DNA of 25,471 bases. It comes from a virus (taxonomy: Duplodnaviria; Caudoviricetes). The position numbers and the translations under genes are program-made. The notes under the pieces were generated by a model. It did not search any database. It was not told the DNA's origin and saw only the letters and a program-made list of their open reading frames with translations. Below, piece by piece: positions 1 through 11,001 of the stretch; the stretch's first letter is position 1, and every line of letters starts with the position of its first letter. The stretch lies in IMG/VR virus record IMGVR_UViG_3300020043_004494, positions 1 to 25,471 of that record, one strand, 5' to 3'.

Positions 1-217
1 CAATGGCAACAAAAGCATTGGTGACAATGGATTGATTGCTGGAGTTAATAACGGAGACACTATTGTGGTACTCGCAAATGCTGGAATCGAAGGTGACCAA
101 CTGCGTGACTACTACGCACGAATCAACTTAACCAACAGCAGCACGTCTGAAATCGAGCTGTATGCTGTCAACGCAGTATACGCAAAAAGTAATCTACACA
201 ACGAACTGGGACAATAA
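1..217 (+). CDS. 3' end of a phage structural protein, probably tail stabilization/nozzle type (partial)
   Basis: Frame is open from position 2 to TAA at 215-217. The C-terminus EGDQLRDYYARINLTN..EIELYAVN resembles tail-protein ends of Bacteroidota podoviruses (recalled), and it lies directly before ejection-type genes. Confidence 0.5.
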   Translation, partial: NGNKSIGDNGLIAGVNNGDTIVVLANAGIEGDQLRDYYARINLTNSSTSEIELYAVNAVYAKSNLHNELGQ

Positions 218-233: not shown

Positions 234-1217
234 ATGCGACCAAAGAAGAGTAAAGAACCAAAAAAGTATGCTGTAGGCGGTATGGTTGCCGGAGCACTGC
301 TTGGCGCAGGTCAGGCAGGTCTTGGCATCTACCAAATGATTCAAGGACAGCAAGCTGCTAAACGAATTAAGGAAGCATCAACTGCCCGTCCATCTGAGTA
401 CGCAGAGCTGCTAAAGCAGGCACGTAATGCTGAGCTGGAGCAACGACGTCTAGAAGAACTTAATCGTTCAATTTCCACCGGAATTGCTGCCGCCCAAGGC
501 GCAGGTGGGCGCACCTTACTTGGTGTGCTTCCCAAAATGGTGCAAGCTGGAGATGCTGGTGCACTTGACATTTTAGGACAACGCCGCTCTGATACAATGC
601 AGGCTCTTCAGTTTGGAGCACAAGGTGCTGAGCGTGAGATTGGTCGTGAGATTAATCGTGAGATGATGGAGCGTGGTGCTGCTCAGGCTGCGATTGAAGG
701 TGGACTGCAAAACTTTGCTGGTGGTCTTGGACAAGTTGGATCAGCTGCTATTTATAGCGAATTAGGAAAAACAGTTAAGGATGTAGAGAAAGAAATTTCG
801 CCAAATCCTGAAGATGCTATACGGCAACAAACTATGAGGTCTTTGGGTAAGACCCAAAGAGAGCGTGATAAGATTGGAGAAAGTTTGGTCGATCTTCAAG
901 GTCAGCTTGACGAAGACCGAGTTCCGCTCCTTGCAGCAAACAGATCTAAAGTTGCGAATATACTTGCACCAGAAGAAGACGAATTTAATCTCGGAAGCAG
1001 ATTGTTTCAACTTCCATCTCAATTAAAGGATGGTGGTATGGTTACTGGCGGTAAGTTTGACCACAAGACCAACCCTATCGATATCATCCACGCTGGACGC
1101 AAGGTTGGTGAGATGACTGGAGGAGAGGTAATCCTCAACCCAGAACAGCAGAAGAAGCTAAGTAAGGAGAGCAAGTACTTCCGTACCTTGTTAAAGAAAT
1201 TCAATAAGCAGAAGTAA
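234..1217 (+). CDS. Putative internal virion/ejection protein, 327 aa
   Basis: Gly/Ala-rich hydrophobic N-terminal and central segments, coiled-coil Q/A/E stretches and a C-terminal GGMVTGGKFDH..GEMTGGE module. First of three consecutive increasingly large ORFs after the tail gene. Confidence 0.6.
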   Translation: MRPKKSKEPKKYAVGGMVAGALLGAGQAGLGIYQMIQGQQAAKRIKEASTARPSEYAELLKQARNAELEQRRLEELNRSISTGIAAAQGAGGRTLLGVLPKMVQAGDAGALDILGQRRSDTMQALQFGAQGAEREIGREINREMMERGAAQAAIEGGLQNFAGGLGQVGSAAIYSELGKTVKDVEKEISPNPEDAIRQQTMRSLGKTQRERDKIGESLVDLQGQLDEDRVPLLAANRSKVANILAPEEDEFNLGSRLFQLPSQLKDGGMVTGGKFDHKTNPIDIIHAGRKVGEMTGGEVILNPEQQKKLSKESKYFRTLLKKFNKQK

Positions 1218-3037
1218 TGGCGAAACTAATTCCAAGTGGTGTAGTAAACCTACCGAACTTCGCAGAGCTACAGTACAATCTCAATCGTCAGCGTCAAGCT
1301 GATGAGCTTGCTGTTGCTAAAGACGTAGCGCAATTCAAGCAGCGAGAAGGAATCATTGCGCCCGGCGCTATGCCGCTTGTACAAGCTGAGTTTGATGATT
1401 GGCAAAATAAAGCAAAGAAATATGCTGCAGACCCAAGTGCTGCAAACTATACTGCGCTTAGTGGAGCATATGACAAATACTCAAAGGCACACGGAACAGC
1501 AAAGTTTCTATTTGATACAGTAAAGGAGCGAGACGCAAAATACTATTCTGACCCAACAAAGTGGGGCATATCAGCTGATCAATACGCCAGTGATTCTGAT
1601 GGTCTTATTCGAAATCGCTACAATAGTTTTGAAGAGCTAATGACTGCTGCGTCCAACATTAGCGAACTTAGTCCAAGAAAAAATATAAACTTTTCTATGG
1701 CAGAACAGTGGGTATCGTCCACACTTTCTCCTGCTTGGGAAAAGGTTTATGCAAGCCTTGATTTAAAAGGTACTGGACGAGTTACCGAAGCGCAAAGAAA
1801 AGAATGGTTTAATCAAGCTTATACAGGTCAAGTTGAAGCTAATGAAGATTCAAAAAAAGAAGCTATACTTGGAGAGGTTCAACGTCAAGGAAGATTTGGA
1901 CTGAATAGAGATGGATCTCCAATAAACTTAACGCAAGAACAAATAAATGAGGTTCTTTCTAGTCCAGAGCTGAGCGCTAAATATCTTTTAGATCATAAAA
2001 ATAGAGCAGAAGCACTATTTAATCAAGGTGCAGCACTTGAGTATGTAACTCCATACGTATCACGTAGGGACGCAAGAGATTATAATTTGCAGGTAGCTAA
2101 ACTTTACGGCGATAGAGATAAAGATCAATTTACTGGAACTCCAGAAATATATCTTACGTCTGCAAATCAGGGTATGGTTGCATTACCGGCCCCAGTAAAG
2201 ATTGGTGATCGAGAGATCTATCAGTATGGAACCGATGCTGCTGGAAATAAATATTTTTTTACATCTCAAAAAAATGAACTCGGTCAAGAAGTTCAGAAAG
2301 TAGTAAAGGCAACAGATGAGGAATTCAGAACAACTGAAGCACTACTTAACAAAGAGTTTAAAGATCCAAACTTCTTTAGTCGCAACTTAGCTATGGCTCG
2401 ATTGCGTATTCCAAAATCTGAAGCAGAAATGTCTAAGATGGCTAAAGAAACACCTATGGCTTCATCAAGAGCGTTAGAGGTTCAATATAAAACAGATAAA
2501 GGACTTATTGGTCAAATGACTGGATCTATTCGTCGCAGTCCACAACAAGCAGCGAGCACAACGCAGCAGCTAGCAAATAAATATCCAGATGCATTTACGC
2601 GCTCTGGAGTAGATCTGAATAACTTAACAGTTGAAGATGTTGACCGCTTTGCTGAAGAGATTGCTGCTGATCAGTCTGGATCTGTAACTAAAGCAAAGGG
2701 TGCAGAAAAGGCTGTTACAGTTTCAAAGAAGTCTGCTCAAGAAACAAAAGAGTACGATAAGCTTTCTGCTCTTACTTTTGAAGTCGGATCAGCACTTGGT
2801 GTCCGTCAACGTGCAGAAGAAACTTCAGATAAATACTTTGAAAGAATCAAAAACAAGGCGTCGGAAATTATGTCCGACACGTATAGGTCTCAAGGAGTAT
2901 ATAAGTCCAAGAGTGGAAACGAAGAGAATGCACGCCTGCGTCGCATTCTAGAATTTAGAACTCCATATCAAGAGGCATCTAGAGCATACAATGACTTCAT
3001 TGATGCTGCTGAAGAACTTGAATCAGCGAGGAAGTAA
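1217..3037 (+). CDS. Putative internal virion/ejection protein, 606 aa
   Basis: Long helical, Cys-free ORF coupled to the upstream gene by a TAATG overlap; function inferred from synteny only. Confidence 0.55.
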   Translation: MAKLIPSGVVNLPNFAELQYNLNRQRQADELAVAKDVAQFKQREGIIAPGAMPLVQAEFDDWQNKAKKYAADPSAANYTALSGAYDKYSKAHGTAKFLFDTVKERDAKYYSDPTKWGISADQYASDSDGLIRNRYNSFEELMTAASNISELSPRKNINFSMAEQWVSSTLSPAWEKVYASLDLKGTGRVTEAQRKEWFNQAYTGQVEANEDSKKEAILGEVQRQGRFGLNRDGSPINLTQEQINEVLSSPELSAKYLLDHKNRAEALFNQGAALEYVTPYVSRRDARDYNLQVAKLYGDRDKDQFTGTPEIYLTSANQGMVALPAPVKIGDREIYQYGTDAAGNKYFFTSQKNELGQEVQKVVKATDEEFRTTEALLNKEFKDPNFFSRNLAMARLRIPKSEAEMSKMAKETPMASSRALEVQYKTDKGLIGQMTGSIRRSPQQAASTTQQLANKYPDAFTRSGVDLNNLTVEDVDRFAEEIAADQSGSVTKAKGAEKAVTVSKKSAQETKEYDKLSALTFEVGSALGVRQRAEETSDKYFERIKNKASEIMSDTYRSQGVYKSKSGNEENARLRRILEFRTPYQEASRAYNDFIDAAEELESARK

Positions 3038-3069: not shown

Positions 3070-6000
3070 ATGGAAGACGAAATCAAAGGCATTGTTGACT
3101 TAGCAATCAAGAATGGTTACAATCAGGAAGATATCAAGAATATCTTAACCGAAGGGGGCTTTGACCCTAAGCTAATATCTTTAGCTGTAACCGAGCTTGA
3201 AACTAAAAAAAAAAGTCCGAGCCAAAAAGATTTAGAGGAATTAAAGTTAAAGTCGGAAGAAAAGTTTTTTGCTTCGGATATATCGAGTAGCCAACCACGT
3301 GAGGCTGCTGTAGAGCTTTACAATGCCGTAGTAAAGGGCAACCTTAGTGATGCTGTCGTATCTAAAGATAAGGATCGATACAATTCACTATACAATGTAT
3401 ATCGTCAAACATCGTCTGATCCATCTGTTCGGTCTTTGCCCGCGTCTTTATTTGATGAGAACGGCAACGTAAATAACGATGCGTTTTCTCGGCTTCGCAG
3501 GGATTCATTTCGCCAGCTTCAATACCAAATTGATGAAGATAGGAAATCATACGAAGAACGAGAGGAACAAATAGCAAAACGACAGAAATCTCGTGTTCCT
3601 GTAATTAGCCCACTTATTGATGGAGCTGAATCTATTCTTGGTGGAATTATAAATCTAGCTGGAGAAGTATCAGGTAGCGAAACGCTTAGCGAAGCTGGAT
3701 CATATCTTCTTGAAGATGTACAGCTCGGAACCGTAGCTGGTCTACGAAGTTCAGGACTCACAGATGAAGAAATCAATAAGGGATTTCTAAATAATGTAAT
3801 GGAGGGAAACATCGGAACTGGACTCACGATTCTTGGACCGCAATTACTTCAACAAATACCACAGCTAGCCCTTATTGCAGCAACTGGTGGAACAGCTGGT
3901 ATTAGTGTTCTTGGCGCTTCGTCCGCTGGCTCTGCACTTGAATCTGTAGAAAAGCGCAAGGATATGACAGCTCAAGAAAAGATGCTTTATGGCGTTGGAG
4001 CTGGTCTTGCAGAGGCTTTATCTGAGCGATTGTTTATGGGCGATATTCGTATGCTTCGTCAAGCACTCGGAAAAGCTGGAGCTCAAAATTTGAGCAAGGA
4101 AGAAATAAAGCAATCGTTGTTTGCTAGCGTTCCACAATCTGTCCGTTCAACTTTAGAAGAGGGAGTTGAAGAAGCTGTTGCTAGTGTAGTCCAGCAAGGG
4201 TTACTAAATGTTATTGCTGGTGACGAAATTGATCCAATTGAAGTAGCTGAAGGAGCTATCATTGGTAGCATTATGGGAGGATCAACATATCTCTTATCTA
4301 AGGGTATGGGAGCAATTGGATCCTCTGCTACAATTAAAGAGCGTGCTGAAATAAAGAAGCAAGTTGACGACATTGAAAAATCAATCAATGACCCAGAAAC
4401 ATCCGAAGTAGAAAAGGATAAGTTAGAAGATTTGCTTGCTGAAGTAAATAATAGGAAGCAGGACATTGAGGCAATGGATGCCGCATTCTATTCTCAGATG
4501 ACAGAACAAGATAGGTTAGAGCTTTATAATCTAAACAACAACCTACTTAGAGAAGCTCGAAACTACAATAAATTCAAGGATAAAACCTTGAAGCAAAGGT
4601 CGTTGGACGAGATCAAACGCATCAAAGAATCTATTAACGAAATCGAAAACAGATATGATCGCGAAGAAGAAATCAGGGTACCAAGTCCTGTCGCAGAAGG
4701 GGAAGCCATTATCGAAGCCCAACCTATCGAAGGAACAGGCGAAGAAGCGCCTGAAGCAGGTGGAGTACTTCAAGTACCTGTCGAAGAAGGGCCTGAAGAA
4801 GTAGCATCACCAGCTGTCGAAGAAACTCCAGTTGCTGAAGAAGTAAAAGCTACCGTACCACAATCAAATAAACAATTTGAAGAAGAGAAAAAACGACTAG
4901 AGCAAGAGATAGTTCGTTTGATGGATGCGGAAACGGACGAGATTTCTAGAGTAAGACGAGCCATAAGAGTAGTTCAAGGAACTGATAAGTTAGCAACACT
5001 TGATGGAGTTATGGTTAGTGAAGGGACAATTAAACAAATTTATGGATATTATGAGCCCCTCATAGAAAATTTAAACAATCAACTCAGAGACCTATTAAAG
5101 TCATCTAAGCCTGAGGCACCAGTTCAAAAGCCACTTGCTGAACAAACTGACGATGAGCGCATTCAGCGTCTTATGCTTGACTCTTTAAAAAACAAAGCAT
5201 TCCCAGCTATACCAAACCTTCAATTAAAGGATGGTAGAAATACAAACATCCCATTAGGAACAACAGAACAGGAGTTGGTTTCAGCGCTAGAAAAAGGAGA
5301 AGTTCCAACGAATGATGGTGTTGTAAAGATTTCAGATATACAAAGTGTAACCGGTGATGGTCGGCGTTTTGAAAGAAAAGAAGTAACTCCAGTTGCCGAA
5401 CCAGTTGCTGAGGTTGTAACTCCAACTGTTGAACCAACTCAAGAGACTGCTCCTACCGTCTCAGATGAGGAACGGCAGCTACTCAATAATATCCAACTTT
5501 ATGAGGATGAGATTGATAATAATAAAAACGAAATACAGATAGAGAAGGGCAACATCAAGGAGGAATTAGATCGTCTCAAAGGTGAGATTGCGAACGTTCG
5601 CGCTCAGAAGCTACCAGCTGATGAGAAGCGTGACTTGATTGATGATCTCAAGGCCCAAATGGAAGACGCTAAAGATGCTCACGATAGTCTCGTTGAAATA
5701 TATAAAGAGGGTATTAAATTACTACAGTCTGATGTAAAGAAGGCACAGAGAAAGCTTGCCAAAATCCGTCAATCCCCAACACAGCAACAGGCAGAGCCAG
5801 CCAAGGAGCCATCACCTATGGAGGCTCGTAAAGAAACAGCTGTTAAGACTGATGCTGACGGTAACGCTTTCATAATGAAGGATGACTTCATAACTGAATT
5901 TCCCGCGCTGTATTCATTCTTTAATTCTGGTGAAATTTTCCGTCGCGTGCGTGGAGAAACTGACACAAGGGCTGAATATTTACGTGACAATGCTAAACGC

Positions 6001-9000
6001 GTAGCTTGGCTCAATCAAGCTATTCGCCTTAGAATAGATGTATCTAAGGATTTCTTAGTGATGATGTCATCTTACAAGCCAAGAACTCAAAAGGATGTAG
6101 AGCGATTCAATCAAGCATACATTGAGTCAGAACGTTTCTTGGCTCAAATGATGGCTGCCCAAAAGAATGATGCTGTCTTTAAAACAAAAGCTCAAGTCAT
6201 AGCTGTAATAAAGCGACAAGCTTCCCTTACTCCAGCTCAAAAAGAAGTAATGACTAAGGTTATCCAGTCGTTAAATTCAGAACAGCTATTCAATATAAAC
6301 TTTAAAGGTGAGAAGGACTTTTATCAATTTGCCACAAACTTATTTAAGGCGAATCACGGGTACACTATTATCCACGAAATCGGTCACTGGGGATACTTCA
6401 ATATTCTAAGCGCTCAAGAGCGTTTGGACTTTATGAACTATATGGCCAATAAGTTTATGGATGGCGAGACTGATGGACTTGTATATCCGATGTTTGGCAA
6501 TGCCATAAACGCAAAAGACTCATACCAAGAATACTTCGCTAACCAGTTTGACCAGTGGTACACCAACCAAGTTGGAGCTGAAGGTGTGCTAAAGAAGATG
6601 TTTGAGAAACTTGGTAAGTTTGTTGATCAACTTATTAACGCATTCAAAGAGGTTGGCTACAACAAAGATCTTACGATGTTCTTTGAGCGTATCGCAGATA
6701 CCACTAAGTATGGTATGGATAAGGCTAAAATAGATGCGATAGACAGCCAACTTAACGAAAACTTAAACACTGGCGGTGACTACATTGGTATGCCAAGCGT
6801 GTCATTAGAAAGTATTTCTGACCCAGAAAAAGAAAGTGAACTCGACACGGAACAAGAGACCGTAAAGGATAAATTTAAGAAAGCATTTGAGAAGACCATA
6901 CTTAGTGACAAGAATAAAAAAACTTGGCGCTCTATGTGGTGGAGTGACGAACAGCGTCAGGTGCGCGTGTATAAGGAGACATTGACATCAATGCTCAATA
7001 GAGAGGCGATGACAATAACTGAGTTTGCAAGCAGACTAGATAATCTTTTGTCTGGAGCAGACAGCGACACACTTGCTTTGGTTTCCAACATTATGGATGG
7101 AACCATAACTCCAGAACAGCGATCAGTTCTTGAGTCTAAGAAAGATGGTAAGTTGATATTTGGCTTGACTAATGCGATGCGTAACTACATTGATTCATTC
7201 AGTGAAAGCATTGTATCTAGTGAGGCATTTACTCGGCTATCGAAGGAGATGCAAGAGACTATTATTGAAAACATTGGAACTTACTTGCGTGGCACATATC
7301 GCTTCTGGAAAGACAAGCGCTTTATGCCGAGTGAAAAGACGATCAAAGCAGCTATTGAAGATGTCTACAATACAATGTATAATGACAAGTTCAATGAACT
7401 ACAAAAGCTGTTTAAGGTAGAAAAGGTAAGGAATAATATTGCTGAGCTTTCAGAGCTGTACGAGCAGATACGCGAGAACATTATTGAAGAGGAGCGCAAG
7501 CTTCCAGCTGGAGAGAAGACAGCTGAAATCAAGGCTTTGATTGCCAATCTTGACGACGTAGGAAAGAAACTAAACTCAGAGAGAAAACTAGCTGAGAAGC
7601 AGAAGAAGCTTATGAAGTCTTTGACTGGCAGCGAAGAAATGACGCCTGAGAATATTAAGCTGTTTGTTGACCAAAAGAACGACTACATATCAAAGGAAAT
7701 CAACAAGCTTGCTCCTGAGATTAAAGAGGAGGCTAAAGATTTTGTGAATGCGTATCTTGAAGAAGCTAAGAAGATTCGAGAGCGAGACGACTTCAAGGGT
7801 CTTGGTATGATTAGTCCATCCTCAATTAAGATCCCGAGTAAGCCATTTAGCCGCAGAAAGAATCTTCCAGAAACAATCAAGGCATTGCTCGGTGAAGAAA
7901 AAGATCCTATCATACGCTTTGTGGATACAGCTGTGTCTCTTAGCAACATTAAGTACAAGGGTGAGATGGTATCTAAAATTGCAACGCAATTTAGCGGTAC
8001 AGATTTCATAAAGAATAAGGCCAGTAAATCAGATATTGCCTCTGGAAAGTATAGGGTTGTGAGTGATAAGTTCTCTCCACTTAACGGAAAGTATGTTCAT
8101 ACTGACATATTTGAGGCTATTGTAGACCCAGAGATATACTCTGCAGAAACAGCTTGGTTGCAGACGTACTTTAATATACTTCTGTTAGGGCGCAAATCAA
8201 AAGTTATATACAACCTTCCAACTTGGCGTAAGAACCTTACTGGTGGCTGGTATACTATGATGGCAAATGGAGTTGTCAATCCTGAGTTTTTTAAGGATAT
8301 GAATAGAAGAGCTCAGCTTCTGCTTAGCCGACGAGCTGATCCGGAAACCGAGGCTCTTCTTGATGTTATGGCAAAGGAAGGATTGCTCGGTCAAGGTGTG
8401 GATGCTAACCTCATTGGGGCTGTTAATGTGATGTATAAGCGTGCTGCAACAGGAACTGATCTCGAATACCTAACGTCAATGCAAAGGCTTGGTGAAAAAG
8501 TAAAGGGATTTGACACTCAACTTGGTAATAAGTATGCGTCAGTTGATGACTACACAAAGTTGGTTGTGTTTAGAAGCGAGATAAAAAGCTTTGCTATTAA
8601 ATTGTTTGGAAAGGAATACGATTCTTTGACAGACGCTCAGAAGGATGCCGTCCATAAGCAGGCTGCTGAACGAGTAAAACAATCTACCCCAACATTCTCT
8701 CGCCTTCCGCCATTCTACTACAAGTTAGCTCGTATGCCACTTGGTGACTTCTTGTCTTTTGAGTTTGAAGCAATCAGGAGTTTTACTGCAAACTTTAAGA
8801 ATGGATACACCGATATTCAAACTGGAATTAACGACAAGAGTTTATCTCCAGAACAAAAAGCTGAATACATTAAGTCTGGAACTCGCAGACTTATGGGTAC
8901 AGCTGCTGTATTTGGAGCTCGTGCTGCTGTTCCAGCTATTCTTGCTGGTATAGCTCTTGGAGATGACGATGAACTTGAGGAGGACGTAAAAGCATTACGA

Positions 9001-9687
9001 CCAAACTGGATGGAAGGTCATAGTATTATACCTACGGCGATTGGCAAAGACGGGACAGCTACTGTTTATGACTACTCAATGGAAGATCCATACGGGACAA
9101 TTTTTGATGTTGTCACTGATCCGTTATCTTTCCCATCGCACGCATTGAATATGCTTAATCCTAATATGGCGATAACATTTTTGTTCAACCTGTCTGAATC
9201 TAGAGATGTATACGGAAGAGATATTGTGAACAGCTATGACAGTGGGTTTACAAAAGCATATAAGTATAGTGGATACACACTTAAATCACTTATTGTTCCT
9301 CCATTTATATCTTCAGCAGTAAGGGATGAATTAAGAACTGCTGAAGCAGAAGCAGAAACATATAGCCCACTAGATGCTGTTGGTCGTGTGGCTTCTAGAG
9401 CTGTTATTAGAGACTATAAGTATGACATTTCTTCTCAGTTGTATTTCTTTGGAAAAGAGTTTGCAACCAAAAAAGACCAATATACTGATCTTTCAGGAGC
9501 ATCAAGAAGCAACAGACTCGCTCAACTTGACGATATAAGAAATATGTATTTATCTCTTAACAATATAGCATTGCAGAAAGGAAATCTTAATTTAATTGTC
9601 GAAGCAAATAAGAATCTTAAGCGTCAGTTCAAACCATTTGAAGAAGCGTACATTTTATACGGTTATGAAATCCCCGAACAAGAATGA
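3070..9687 (+). CDS. Giant internal virion/ejection (polyvalent-type) protein with zincin-like metallopeptidase module, 2205 aa
   Basis: Gly/Ala-rich membrane-like N-terminal region, P/V/A/E linkers, coiled coils, IIHEIGH (HExxH, 6373-6387) with downstream EYFA (6529-6540), and a helical C-terminal region typical of large podovirus ejection proteins. Confidence 0.7.
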   Translation: MEDEIKGIVDLAIKNGYNQEDIKNILTEGGFDPKLISLAVTELETKKKSPSQKDLEELKLKSEEKFFASDISSSQPREAAVELYNAVVKGNLSDAVVSKDKDRYNSLYNVYRQTSSDPSVRSLPASLFDENGNVNNDAFSRLRRDSFRQLQYQIDEDRKSYEEREEQIAKRQKSRVPVISPLIDGAESILGGIINLAGEVSGSETLSEAGSYLLEDVQLGTVAGLRSSGLTDEEINKGFLNNVMEGNIGTGLTILGPQLLQQIPQLALIAATGGTAGISVLGASSAGSALESVEKRKDMTAQEKMLYGVGAGLAEALSERLFMGDIRMLRQALGKAGAQNLSKEEIKQSLFASVPQSVRSTLEEGVEEAVASVVQQGLLNVIAGDEIDPIEVAEGAIIGSIMGGSTYLLSKGMGAIGSSATIKERAEIKKQVDDIEKSINDPETSEVEKDKLEDLLAEVNNRKQDIEAMDAAFYSQMTEQDRLELYNLNNNLLREARNYNKFKDKTLKQRSLDEIKRIKESINEIENRYDREEEIRVPSPVAEGEAIIEAQPIEGTGEEAPEAGGVLQVPVEEGPEEVASPAVEETPVAEEVKATVPQSNKQFEEEKKRLEQEIVRLMDAETDEISRVRRAIRVVQGTDKLATLDGVMVSEGTIKQIYGYYEPLIENLNNQLRDLLKSSKPEAPVQKPLAEQTDDERIQRLMLDSLKNKAFPAIPNLQLKDGRNTNIPLGTTEQELVSALEKGEVPTNDGVVKISDIQSVTGDGRRFERKEVTPVAEPVAEVVTPTVEPTQETAPTVSDEERQLLNNIQLYEDEIDNNKNEIQIEKGNIKEELDRLKGEIANVRAQKLPADEKRDLIDDLKAQMEDAKDAHDSLVEIYKEGIKLLQSDVKKAQRKLAKIRQSPTQQQAEPAKEPSPMEARKETAVKTDADGNAFIMKDDFITEFPALYSFFNSGEIFRRVRGETDTRAEYLRDNAKRVAWLNQAIRLRIDVSKDFLVMMSSYKPRTQKDVERFNQAYIESERFLAQMMAAQKNDAVFKTKAQVIAVIKRQASLTPAQKEVMTKVIQSLNSEQLFNINFKGEKDFYQFATNLFKANHGYTIIHEIGHWGYFNILSAQERLDFMNYMANKFMDGETDGLVYPMFGNAINAKDSYQEYFANQFDQWYTNQVGAEGVLKKMFEKLGKFVDQLINAFKEVGYNKDLTMFFERIADTTKYGMDKAKIDAIDSQLNENLNTGGDYIGMPSVSLESISDPEKESELDTEQETVKDKFKKAFEKTILSDKNKKTWRSMWWSDEQRQVRVYKETLTSMLNREAMTITEFASRLDNLLSGADSDTLALVSNIMDGTITPEQRSVLESKKDGKLIFGLTNAMRNYIDSFSESIVSSEAFTRLSKEMQETIIENIGTYLRGTYRFWKDKRFMPSEKTIKAAIEDVYNTMYNDKFNELQKLFKVEKVRNNIAELSELYEQIRENIIEEERKLPAGEKTAEIKALIANLDDVGKKLNSERKLAEKQKKLMKSLTGSEEMTPENIKLFVDQKNDYISKEINKLAPEIKEEAKDFVNAYLEEAKKIRERDDFKGLGMISPSSIKIPSKPFSRRKNLPETIKALLGEEKDPIIRFVDTAVSLSNIKYKGEMVSKIATQFSGTDFIKNKASKSDIASGKYRVVSDKFSPLNGKYVHTDIFEAIVDPEIYSAETAWLQTYFNILLLGRKSKVIYNLPTWRKNLTGGWYTMMANGVVNPEFFKDMNRRAQLLLSRRADPETEALLDVMAKEGLLGQGVDANLIGAVNVMYKRAATGTDLEYLTSMQRLGEKVKGFDTQLGNKYASVDDYTKLVVFRSEIKSFAIKLFGKEYDSLTDAQKDAVHKQAAERVKQSTPTFSRLPPFYYKLARMPLGDFLSFEFEAIRSFTANFKNGYTDIQTGINDKSLSPEQKAEYIKSGTRRLMGTAAVFGARAAVPAILAGIALGDDDELEEDVKALRPNWMEGHSIIPTAIGKDGTATVYDYSMEDPYGTIFDVVTDPLSFPSHALNMLNPNMAITFLFNLSESRDVYGRDIVNSYDSGFTKAYKYSGYTLKSLIVPPFISSAVRDELRTAEAEAETYSPLDAVGRVASRAVIRDYKYDISSQLYFFGKEFATKKDQYTDLSGASRSNRLAQLDDIRNMYLSLNNIALQKGNLNLIVEANKNLKRQFKPFEEAYILYGYEIPEQE
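4655..4804 (+). CDS. Nested +1-frame small basic protein, 49 aa (MIAKKKSGYQVLSQKGKPLSKPNLSKEQAKKRLKQVEYFKYLSKKGLKK)
   Basis: ATG 4655 to TAG 4802-4804, translated by hand. A-rich leader (GAAAACAGAT), strong G/C-ending codon bias in this frame, and an AKKRLxQVEYFK motif recalled from small stand-alone phage proteins. Confidence 0.7.
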   Translation: MIAKKKSGYQVLSQKGKPLSKPNLSKEQAKKRLKQVEYFKYLSKKGLKK

Positions 9688-10356: not shown

Positions 10357-11001
10357 CTATTCGTCCCAACGCCAGATAAATCCTTTATGTGTTGCGTATC
10401 CAGCTTTTTGGTCGCAGCAATATATTACATATTTAGGATTGTATCCGTGGTCTTGTAGGATTCTAGCGTATGGCCAAACTTTTAATGTTTGACCGCTAAG
10501 CTTGTCAACTTGAATAACTTTCTTTTCGTGCTTAAATCTGCCGTTGCTTGGACCCTTTTTGCATTCGGACCAAACTTTTAACCTCTGCTGTTTATCTTCT
10601 TCTGATAGCCAATCTGGAAATGCGTTACACTTACGCCTCTCGTCTGGACTAGCATATCTTTTTTTATTTCTATCGCTTACCATCTTGCGTATTTTGTCTT
10701 GTTGGCTAATTGGCAATTGATTAAATATGTCTCCCCCCACACCACCTTTGGCTACATTATAGGTTCCATATTTATCTATGTATTCTTGCTCTATAGAAAA
10801 ACAATCTTCCTGCTCTAGTAGGACGTCGAATACAAAACTATCTTTCCCGTACTTATTGAAGTCACGCTGCATAAATATATTCTTATGATTGCCTTTCTTC
10901 AGTGATGAAATATGATCTTGTTTTCTCTTAATAAAACTACAAGTCGCGCCTATATAGACACGACCAGTAGCTTCATTTGTTATTCTATATATACATTCCA
11001 T
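10357..11001 (-). CDS. GIY-YIG homing endonuclease with C-terminal NUMOD1-like DNA-binding domain
   Basis: CIYRITN..GRVYIG, conserved R (KRKQDH), E (IEQEYI), YN..GG, and C-terminal KKVIQ..G..LKVW..CC..THKGFIWRW. More AT-rich than nrdA. Confidence 0.9.
   Translation of the reverse strand: MECIYRITNEATGRVYIGATCSFIKRKQDHISSLKKGNHKNIFMQRDFNKYGKDSFVFDVLLEQEDCFSIEQEYIDKYGTYNVAKGGVGGDIFNQLPISQQDKIRKMVSDRNKKRYASPDERRKCNAFPDWLSEEDKQQRLKVWSECKKGPSNGRFKHEKKVIQVDKLSGQTLKVWPYARILQDHGYNPKYVIYCCDQKAGYATHKGFIWRWDE

Follow-up and report, generated by a model that had tools for sequence, protein, structure and literature searches.

In phage phiX174, gene E lies inside gene D and the small basic protein J is co-packaged with the DNA; the overprinting there was de novo, in a size-limited single-stranded DNA genome. 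Embedded spanin genes, of which the lambda Rz/Rz1 pair is an example, are thought to be derived from separated genes, and those of the Rz1 type are commonly missed by gene callers; in the available text of the same paper no spanin family mixes embedded and separated members (Kongari et al., 2018; PMC6139136). For polyvalent proteins, packaging and injection have been predicted (Iyer et al., 2017; PMC5512222), and the words "overlapping" and "linker" were not found in the main text of that paper. The present analysis concerns a 25,471-nt stretch of Caudoviricetes DNA (IMG/VR record IMGVR_UViG_3300020043_004494, positions 1 to 25,471; hereafter the window), in which a small basic gene at 4655..4804 is nested in the +1 frame of a giant gene encoding 2205 aa. 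No description of this nested gene was found in literature searches. The best overall explanation, to which a probability of about 0.5 was assigned, is a separately startable nested gene whose product is a small basic hairpin/helix protein, likely binding nucleic acid and likely located inside the phage head.

The nested gene and selection on its two frames

The features examined were as follows.
4655..4804, + strand: nested gene, 49 aa, in the +1 frame of the giant open reading frame (ORF), from ATG 4655 to TAG 4804
3070..9687, + strand: giant gene, 2205 aa, with HExxH at residue 1102
4654..4806, + strand: host-frame reading of the nested region, an acidic Glu/Pro/Val/Ala/Gly linker, residues 529-579, 2 K+R and 15 D+E

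Re-translation reproduced exactly the ORF coordinates and the 49-aa peptide given in a first-pass annotation made from the sequence alone. The peptide contains 16 K+R and 2 D+E, and its ATG corresponds to host residue 529. The annotation had read the G/C-ending codons of the small frame as a sign of selection. The count was correct (43/50 codons), but the argument is circular when taken alone because nested position 3 is host position 1; G/C occupied position 1 in 30/40 host residues 771-810, a stretch with no nested gene. Openness alone was not unusual either, as the giant gene holds two +1 stop-free runs longer than the nested one. Homology and selection, not codon bias or openness, are the evidence for the nested gene; three other long +1 runs (83, 74 and 66 codons) were interrupted by stops in every matched relative.

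Protein identity among 33 indel-free nested copies was 74% in the small frame and 49% in the host frame, and none of the 33 had a host-frame stop over the nested region. In 16 aligned host pairs, which are not independent, the proportion of synonymous differences (pS) in the host frame was 0-0.14 in the 40-codon core versus 0.27-0.72 elsewhere in the gene; in the small frame, pS was above the nonsynonymous proportion (pN) in 16/16 pairs (one marginal), and host-frame pN exceeded pS in 12/16. The hidden-frame selection proposed at first pass was therefore borne out by the higher small-frame identity and the near-frozen host synonymous sites. The locus combines a complete inner ORF, two frames open across relatives, purifying selection inside and suppressed synonymous change outside, as in an embedded gene.

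These data bear on the reading that there is no second gene and that a linker rich in Glu, Val and Ala leaves the +1 frame open as a by-product. Linkers of such composition readily yield open, Lys-rich +1 frames: when host synonymous codons were redrawn 20,000 times, 9.5% of redraws gave an open +1 frame with an ATG. The nested product is also a predicted one. Redrawn frames, however, matched the real peptide at a mean identity of 38% (maximum 61%), whereas stand-alone homologues exist at 60-80% identity, host synonymous sites are frozen over the nested ORF, and DNA identity among 28 hosts with unrelated upstream flanks leaps from 0.28-0.36 before the ATG to 0.62-0.69 after it. The by-product reading is effectively refuted by the two-frame identity and synonymous-site data and retains almost no probability, and we are highly confident that the nested ORF is a real gene.

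The division of labor between the frames was apparent from the substitutions. A synonymous T creating a host stop was seen in 0/603 cases in nested copies versus 84/304 in stand-alone copies, and a synonymous T giving a host sense codon in 38/668 versus 131/389; where the choice was A or G, the host Glu:Lys ratio was 147:26 versus 52:33. Stand-alone copies had 18% T at position 3 and -1-frame stops in 19/20. The window linker carries a net charge of -9, whereas the null gave +0.7 on average (p about 0.001). Because of these both-frame patterns, the small protein is taken to set the sequence, while the giant uses the spare third positions to remain open, acidic and free of aromatic residues. 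The first-pass suggestion that the acidic linker is a by-product of the basic protein thus largely stands, although selection also keeps the linker acidic and clear of stop codons and aromatic residues, so that it is more than a passive by-product. As the first step of the proposed mechanism, both frames are kept open and the sequence constraint is carried by the small frame.

Translation start

The region directly upstream of the nested ATG was as follows.
4630..4654, + strand: leader of the nested gene and likely internal initiation region, A-rich (12/25 A), unstructured (minimum free energy -1.5 kcal/mol), without a Shine-Dalgarno (SD) motif

Leaders in Bacteroidota are A-rich and SD-less. 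No SD-like motif preceded any of 25 other starts scanned in the window, and the leader's folding energy compares with a control mean of -6.2 kcal/mol. The first-pass description of an A-rich leader was upheld for composition and lack of structure; by a start-site matrix the nested ATG was ordinary, with 34% of control ATGs scoring as high.

The signal was clearer across the family. The start codon was kept in 57/57 nested copies (55 ATG, 2 GTG), with an in-frame upstream stop at a median distance of 7 codons. In 47 SD-poor loci, the 20 bases upstream of the nested start were 55% A versus 34% before other +1 ATGs, and upstream folding was -1.65 versus -6.18 kcal/mol. SD-like motifs preceded 6/12 nested starts in SD-using loci versus 2/43 in SD-poor loci (p=7e-4; control 86/793), in a comparison whose threshold was chosen after an earlier start-site analysis and from which 2 loci with under 3 starts were dropped. 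At the family level, the nested gene has its own initiation signal, matched to the host.

A programmed +1 frameshift, which would join the N-terminal 530 residues of the giant to a basic C-terminal tail, was considered as another route to the small frame. Exactly this kind of fusion is represented by a single database protein, P0120 (395 aa), whose junction was nested, not fused, in 6/6 DNA loci found. With a slippery-like motif in only 2/57 copies, a start codon retained in all of them close behind an in-frame stop, and leaders that fit the host's initiation style, frameshifting is very improbable. One RNA run contained a 200-nt piece from elsewhere in the giant gene and none over the nested ORF. 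In the second step of the proposed mechanism, internal initiation would occur at the A-rich leader of a late virion mRNA, so that the small protein would be made together with the cargo.

The protein family and the origin of nested copies

The first-pass annotation had linked the peptide's motif to stand-alone small phage proteins, and such homologues were recovered by search. A peptide search returned 102/103 candidates at E <= 0.001 (41-76 aa, 58-90% identical) and a profile search returned 2,075 cluster representatives, while no family in Pfam, PHROG or NCBIfam was matched by the nested peptide. The best 80 of 142 viral matches comprised 43 nested copies (here meaning inside an ORF of >= 900 codons), 29 alone, 5 in-frame domains and 3 under mid-length ORFs. 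After two further scans, one of them covering the best 80 of 362 matches, 92 distinct viral copies were available, window included: 57 nested in giants, 29 stand-alone, 4 in-frame domains and 2 under mid-length ORFs. Because ranking by similarity to the window favors nested copies, these counts are not population frequencies. The family extends to T4-like myoviruses, siphoviruses, bacteria and archaea. A divergent copy used as query gave 285 cultured phage records at E <= 5, many of them weak, and the best 40 plus 50 spread rows were examined. No cultured phage with the nested form was found in the searches.

Several individual copies departed from the usual arrangements. P0151, P0198, P0271 and P0277 carry two, or one and a half, domain copies per protein. 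Nested copies in L064 and L065 (8001 and 3412, respectively) have a GRNLGEFP loop variant in giants homologous to that of L017, whose copy carries GKPLSKPNL instead; a different subfamily may have taken over this site. In L054 (5870-13094) and L057 (5870-10583) two large genes, separated by a 63-aa gene, take the place of the single giant, and the nested copy lies in the first of them. The host frame of L291:44-240, on a 1.2-kb low-coverage contig, ends in a stop just past the nested gene, probably an assembly error. An unannotated stand-alone copy is present in the cultured Aeromonas phage 1233 (L190:5001-5132; record positions 54721-54852, minus strand), where the surrounding 10 kb holds one annotated gene. 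At L027:6512-8004, a reverse transcriptase gene and a small gene lie directly upstream of a stand-alone copy and after a gene with a Hoc-like end, which looks like a diversity-generating retroelement.

The first-pass term "overprinted", in the sense of de novo birth, did not hold, as the family is older and wider than the giants and homologous giants occur without the nested gene. A gene born by overprinting is younger and narrower in range than the outer gene; the inner family was instead found in many phage groups and in cellular phyla. The cassette was missing from 12/29 homologous giants found via the upstream region, within the DNA available for them, and five genomes of cassette-free giants (three complete) contained no copy anywhere, with positive controls at 5/5. 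The L106 giant aligns on both flanks and holds, instead of the nested region, a linker similar in length and unrelated in sequence. No remnant of the nested gene was detected in giants lacking the cassette, L106 included, and a profile of the host-frame peptide had no match in any giant without the nested gene. Nested copies were placed at host residues 66-1587, behind 28 unrelated upstream flanks, and a capsid query from the relative G006 was detected in 7/15 other nested carriers and undetected in 8/15. On a short (44 columns), unrooted family tree, the nested label needs 11 changes, >= 5 of them on well-supported branches, and monophyly of the nested copies was rejected (p-AU 0.013).

Since the nested copies do not form one clade and some related giants have no cassette, the pattern is better explained by an older gene that was captured and shuffled than by de novo overprinting, and capture is judged probable. 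The family also occurs free and fused to head proteins, which makes it likely that the nested gene was ready-made when captured and likely that its product binds nucleic acid in the virion. The most economical reading would be that an existing gene was captured and that shuffling as a module and loss or escape came afterwards. In this last step of the proposed mechanism, a gene that pre-dates nesting would have been absorbed at a domain boundary, its -1 frame would have lost its stops and been adjusted to encode an acidic linker, after which the cassette would have moved among cargo genes like other modules and been lost from, or never gained by, sister lineages.

The converse history, de novo overprinting in one giant with later escape to stand-alone and fused copies, draws on nested copies being the majority of close viral relatives (57/92) and on the unrooted tree, in which gains and losses are indistinguishable. 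It is unlikely in view of the breadth of the family described above, stand-alone copies that bear no nested signature in their T content or -1-frame stops, and the lack of any remnant in giants without the cassette. A broader extension of the capture reading is put forward tentatively, at somewhat less than even odds: a stop-free -1 frame may let a widespread small basic gene pass, as an in-frame cassette that brings a host-adapted start, from one giant ejection-protein gene to another that is unrelated. Its domain would then serve podo-, sipho- and myoviruses alike as a general module for head loading or ribosome targeting, one that soil bacteria would have domesticated.

Free, nested and fused copies, together with hosts that have or lack the cassette, provide a natural series for comparing overlap by capture with de novo birth, in genomes without obvious size pressure. 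They also indicate that acidic low-complexity linkers in giant phage proteins can conceal conserved genes lost in annotation.

Proposed function, genomic context and comparison with known systems

AlphaFold2 predicted a beta-hairpin (residues 2-5 and 8-12) and a helix (26-44) with a pLDDT of 94.8. No clear relative of this fold was found among solved structures; AP2/integrase arm-type and YegP-like small domains were among those compared. The viral look-alikes in BFVD comprised cytidyltransferases and uncharacterised proteins as well as one prohead protease and one XkdF-like protein, and none of them reached E <= 0.001. As a fused domain, it forms the first 41-45 residues of prohead proteases, the C-terminus of portals and one end of in-frame polyvalent proteins. 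Among stand-alone loci, 16/29 had a terminase, portal or capsid gene no more than about 3.5 kb away, a count that includes several near-duplicate loci and some genes assigned by cluster. A DNA-condensing or co-ejected role is plausible from these fusions and neighbors, and a head-borne nucleic-acid binder is given even odds. In the third step of the proposed mechanism, the domain would stick to packaged DNA, the free form neutralising charge or accompanying ejection, while fusion to portal, prohead protease, Acb1 or polyvalent proteins would tether these in the head.

The Acb1 fusions were found in cultured phages. In gp57B of RB43 and KP15 (207 aa; L194:1506-2129 and L195:1503-2126), the domain is a C-terminal extension right after the residues ITE. 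Both proteins begin MKSFLE, and the N-terminus of RB43 gp57B is presumably a T4-type capsid-targeting tag. Putative T4-type targeting and cleavage features, judged by eye, were seen in RB43 and KP15 gp57B and in the P0271 and P0277 fusions and were absent from the window protein. Because T4-type proteases cut after Glu (PMC5694885, available text) and the domain follows ITE, free domain may be released in the head. The arrangement suggests that RB43 and KP15 load an anti-CBASS enzyme into the head.

The same terminal fusions would suit a tag that docks its carrier inside the prohead through protein-protein contact with shell, scaffold or portal, with the free form a small core or scaffold helper. 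The domain lies at the termini of head proteins in siphoviruses, myoviruses and podoviruses, its structural look-alikes include prohead protease and XkdF-like proteins (though none reaches the threshold given above), and a short tag of this kind is used by T4 (PMC9026906, available text). Against a docking tag, the domain is 60-90% identical across carriers whose capsid proteins are very different (the query was found in 7/15), cells that carry a copy offer no capsid to dock to, and RB43 gp57B seems to own a separate N-terminal tag. The docking tag is accordingly considered rather unlikely.

The cellular copies also weigh against a role confined to the head, as copies on bacterial chromosomes call for a function beyond capsids. 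Matches in cellular genome assemblies numbered 223; among the best 80, 69 were stand-alone and 48 were from Acidobacteriota, housekeeping genes were the commonest neighbors, and a 23S rRNA gene lay downstream in 23. In six Acidobacteriota loci (L281, L238, L287, L258, L241 and L242), a stand-alone gene at 5001 is followed by 23S from about 5750-5890, so that a 23S-5S unit lies 0.6-0.8 kb downstream of it and the 10 kb examined contain no 16S gene; these are probably unlinked rRNA operons, and the 23S genes of L241 and L242 contain a group I intron. One explanation is that the product acts on a conserved host machine (ribosome or RNA polymerase), either during infection or once ejected, and that cells keep a domesticated copy for the same target. 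We regard this as possible at roughly half the weight given to the head-borne nucleic-acid binder, and nucleic-acid binding would cover the phage and cellular settings best. The analysis also brings to light an unnamed 43-residue domain attached to portals, prohead proteases, cargo proteins and Acb1 of cultured phages. Its function is therefore open to study in RB43, a phage of E. coli, and a new tag for capsid loading might come of it.

The genes preceding the giant gene in the window were as follows.
2..217, + strand: 3' end of a muzzle-like tail gene, clustering with L001:3-3893, which matches PF25729 crAss_MUZ_C and phrog_14478
234..3037, + strand: two unannotated genes (327 and 606 aa) between the muzzle and giant genes, syntenic in relatives

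The giant protein of the window had no Pfam or PHROG match. It is likely a polyvalent virion cargo (ejection) protein, judging from its position and from other giants hosting the nested gene, which have LPD38, LPD23, ART-PolyVal or InPase domains and in many cases HExxH; of these properties, the window giant has HExxH and the position in the virion block, the Pfam domains being seen only in the other hosts. Among the latter, L079:6296-15163 combines ART-PolyVal with a 2H-phosphoesterase/Acb1-like domain, and the L034 giant has a GGDEF domain and a 1023-codon antisense open frame over the nested gene. The minus strand of the window encodes ribonucleotide reductase, primase-helicase and related genes. 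A GIY-YIG homing endonuclease (10357-11001, minus strand) directly follows the ribonucleotide reductase large-subunit gene; close relatives, L001 and L009 among them, lack it at this position. The relative G006 has terminase, portal, putative capsid, adaptor and muzzle genes; the best matches of its capsid candidate were Flavobacterium and Cellulophaga phages (83/85 records; best about 30% identity), and two nested copies were found in a Prolixibacteraceae genome assembly. The phage is a probable Bacteroidota podovirus.

This gene order resembles that of crAss001, in which a muzzle-like gene is followed by two mid-sized genes and one giant gene (Bayfield et al., 2023; PMC10172136, available text), and by analogy the 327-aa and 606-aa products are likely smaller cargo proteins. 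No nested gene is mentioned in the available crAss001 cargo account. Unlike crAss001, the relatives of the window phage are about 60-70 kb and Flavobacterium/Cellulophaga-phage-like, and RNA polymerase was undetected in the giant. The domains and HExxH of the host giants place them with polyvalent proteins, from which the window giant differs in having no Pfam match.

As in Rz/Rz1, a complete small gene lies in the +1 frame of a larger phage gene on the same strand. Here, however, there is no lipoprotein or lysis context, the host protein is 0.9-3.3 kaa, the overlap is read as a replaceable linker and its position is not fixed; unlike in spanin families, nested, free and fused forms occur within one family. 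A spanin identity was rejected, as the 49-aa peptide has neither Cys nor a hydrophobic signal and its context is muzzle and cargo genes. With the T4 internal proteins (PMC9026906 and PMC5694885, available text) the likeness would be that of small basic accessory proteins in the head, and RB43 and KP15 gp57B offer a parallel in the ITE just before the domain, where cleavage may occur. The window phage is not T4-like, and no sequence match to IPI-III was found, no test aimed at one having been made. The nested architecture and the small basic protein recall phiX174, from which the window phage differs in its roughly 60-kb double-stranded DNA genome and in a nested gene that was probably captured.
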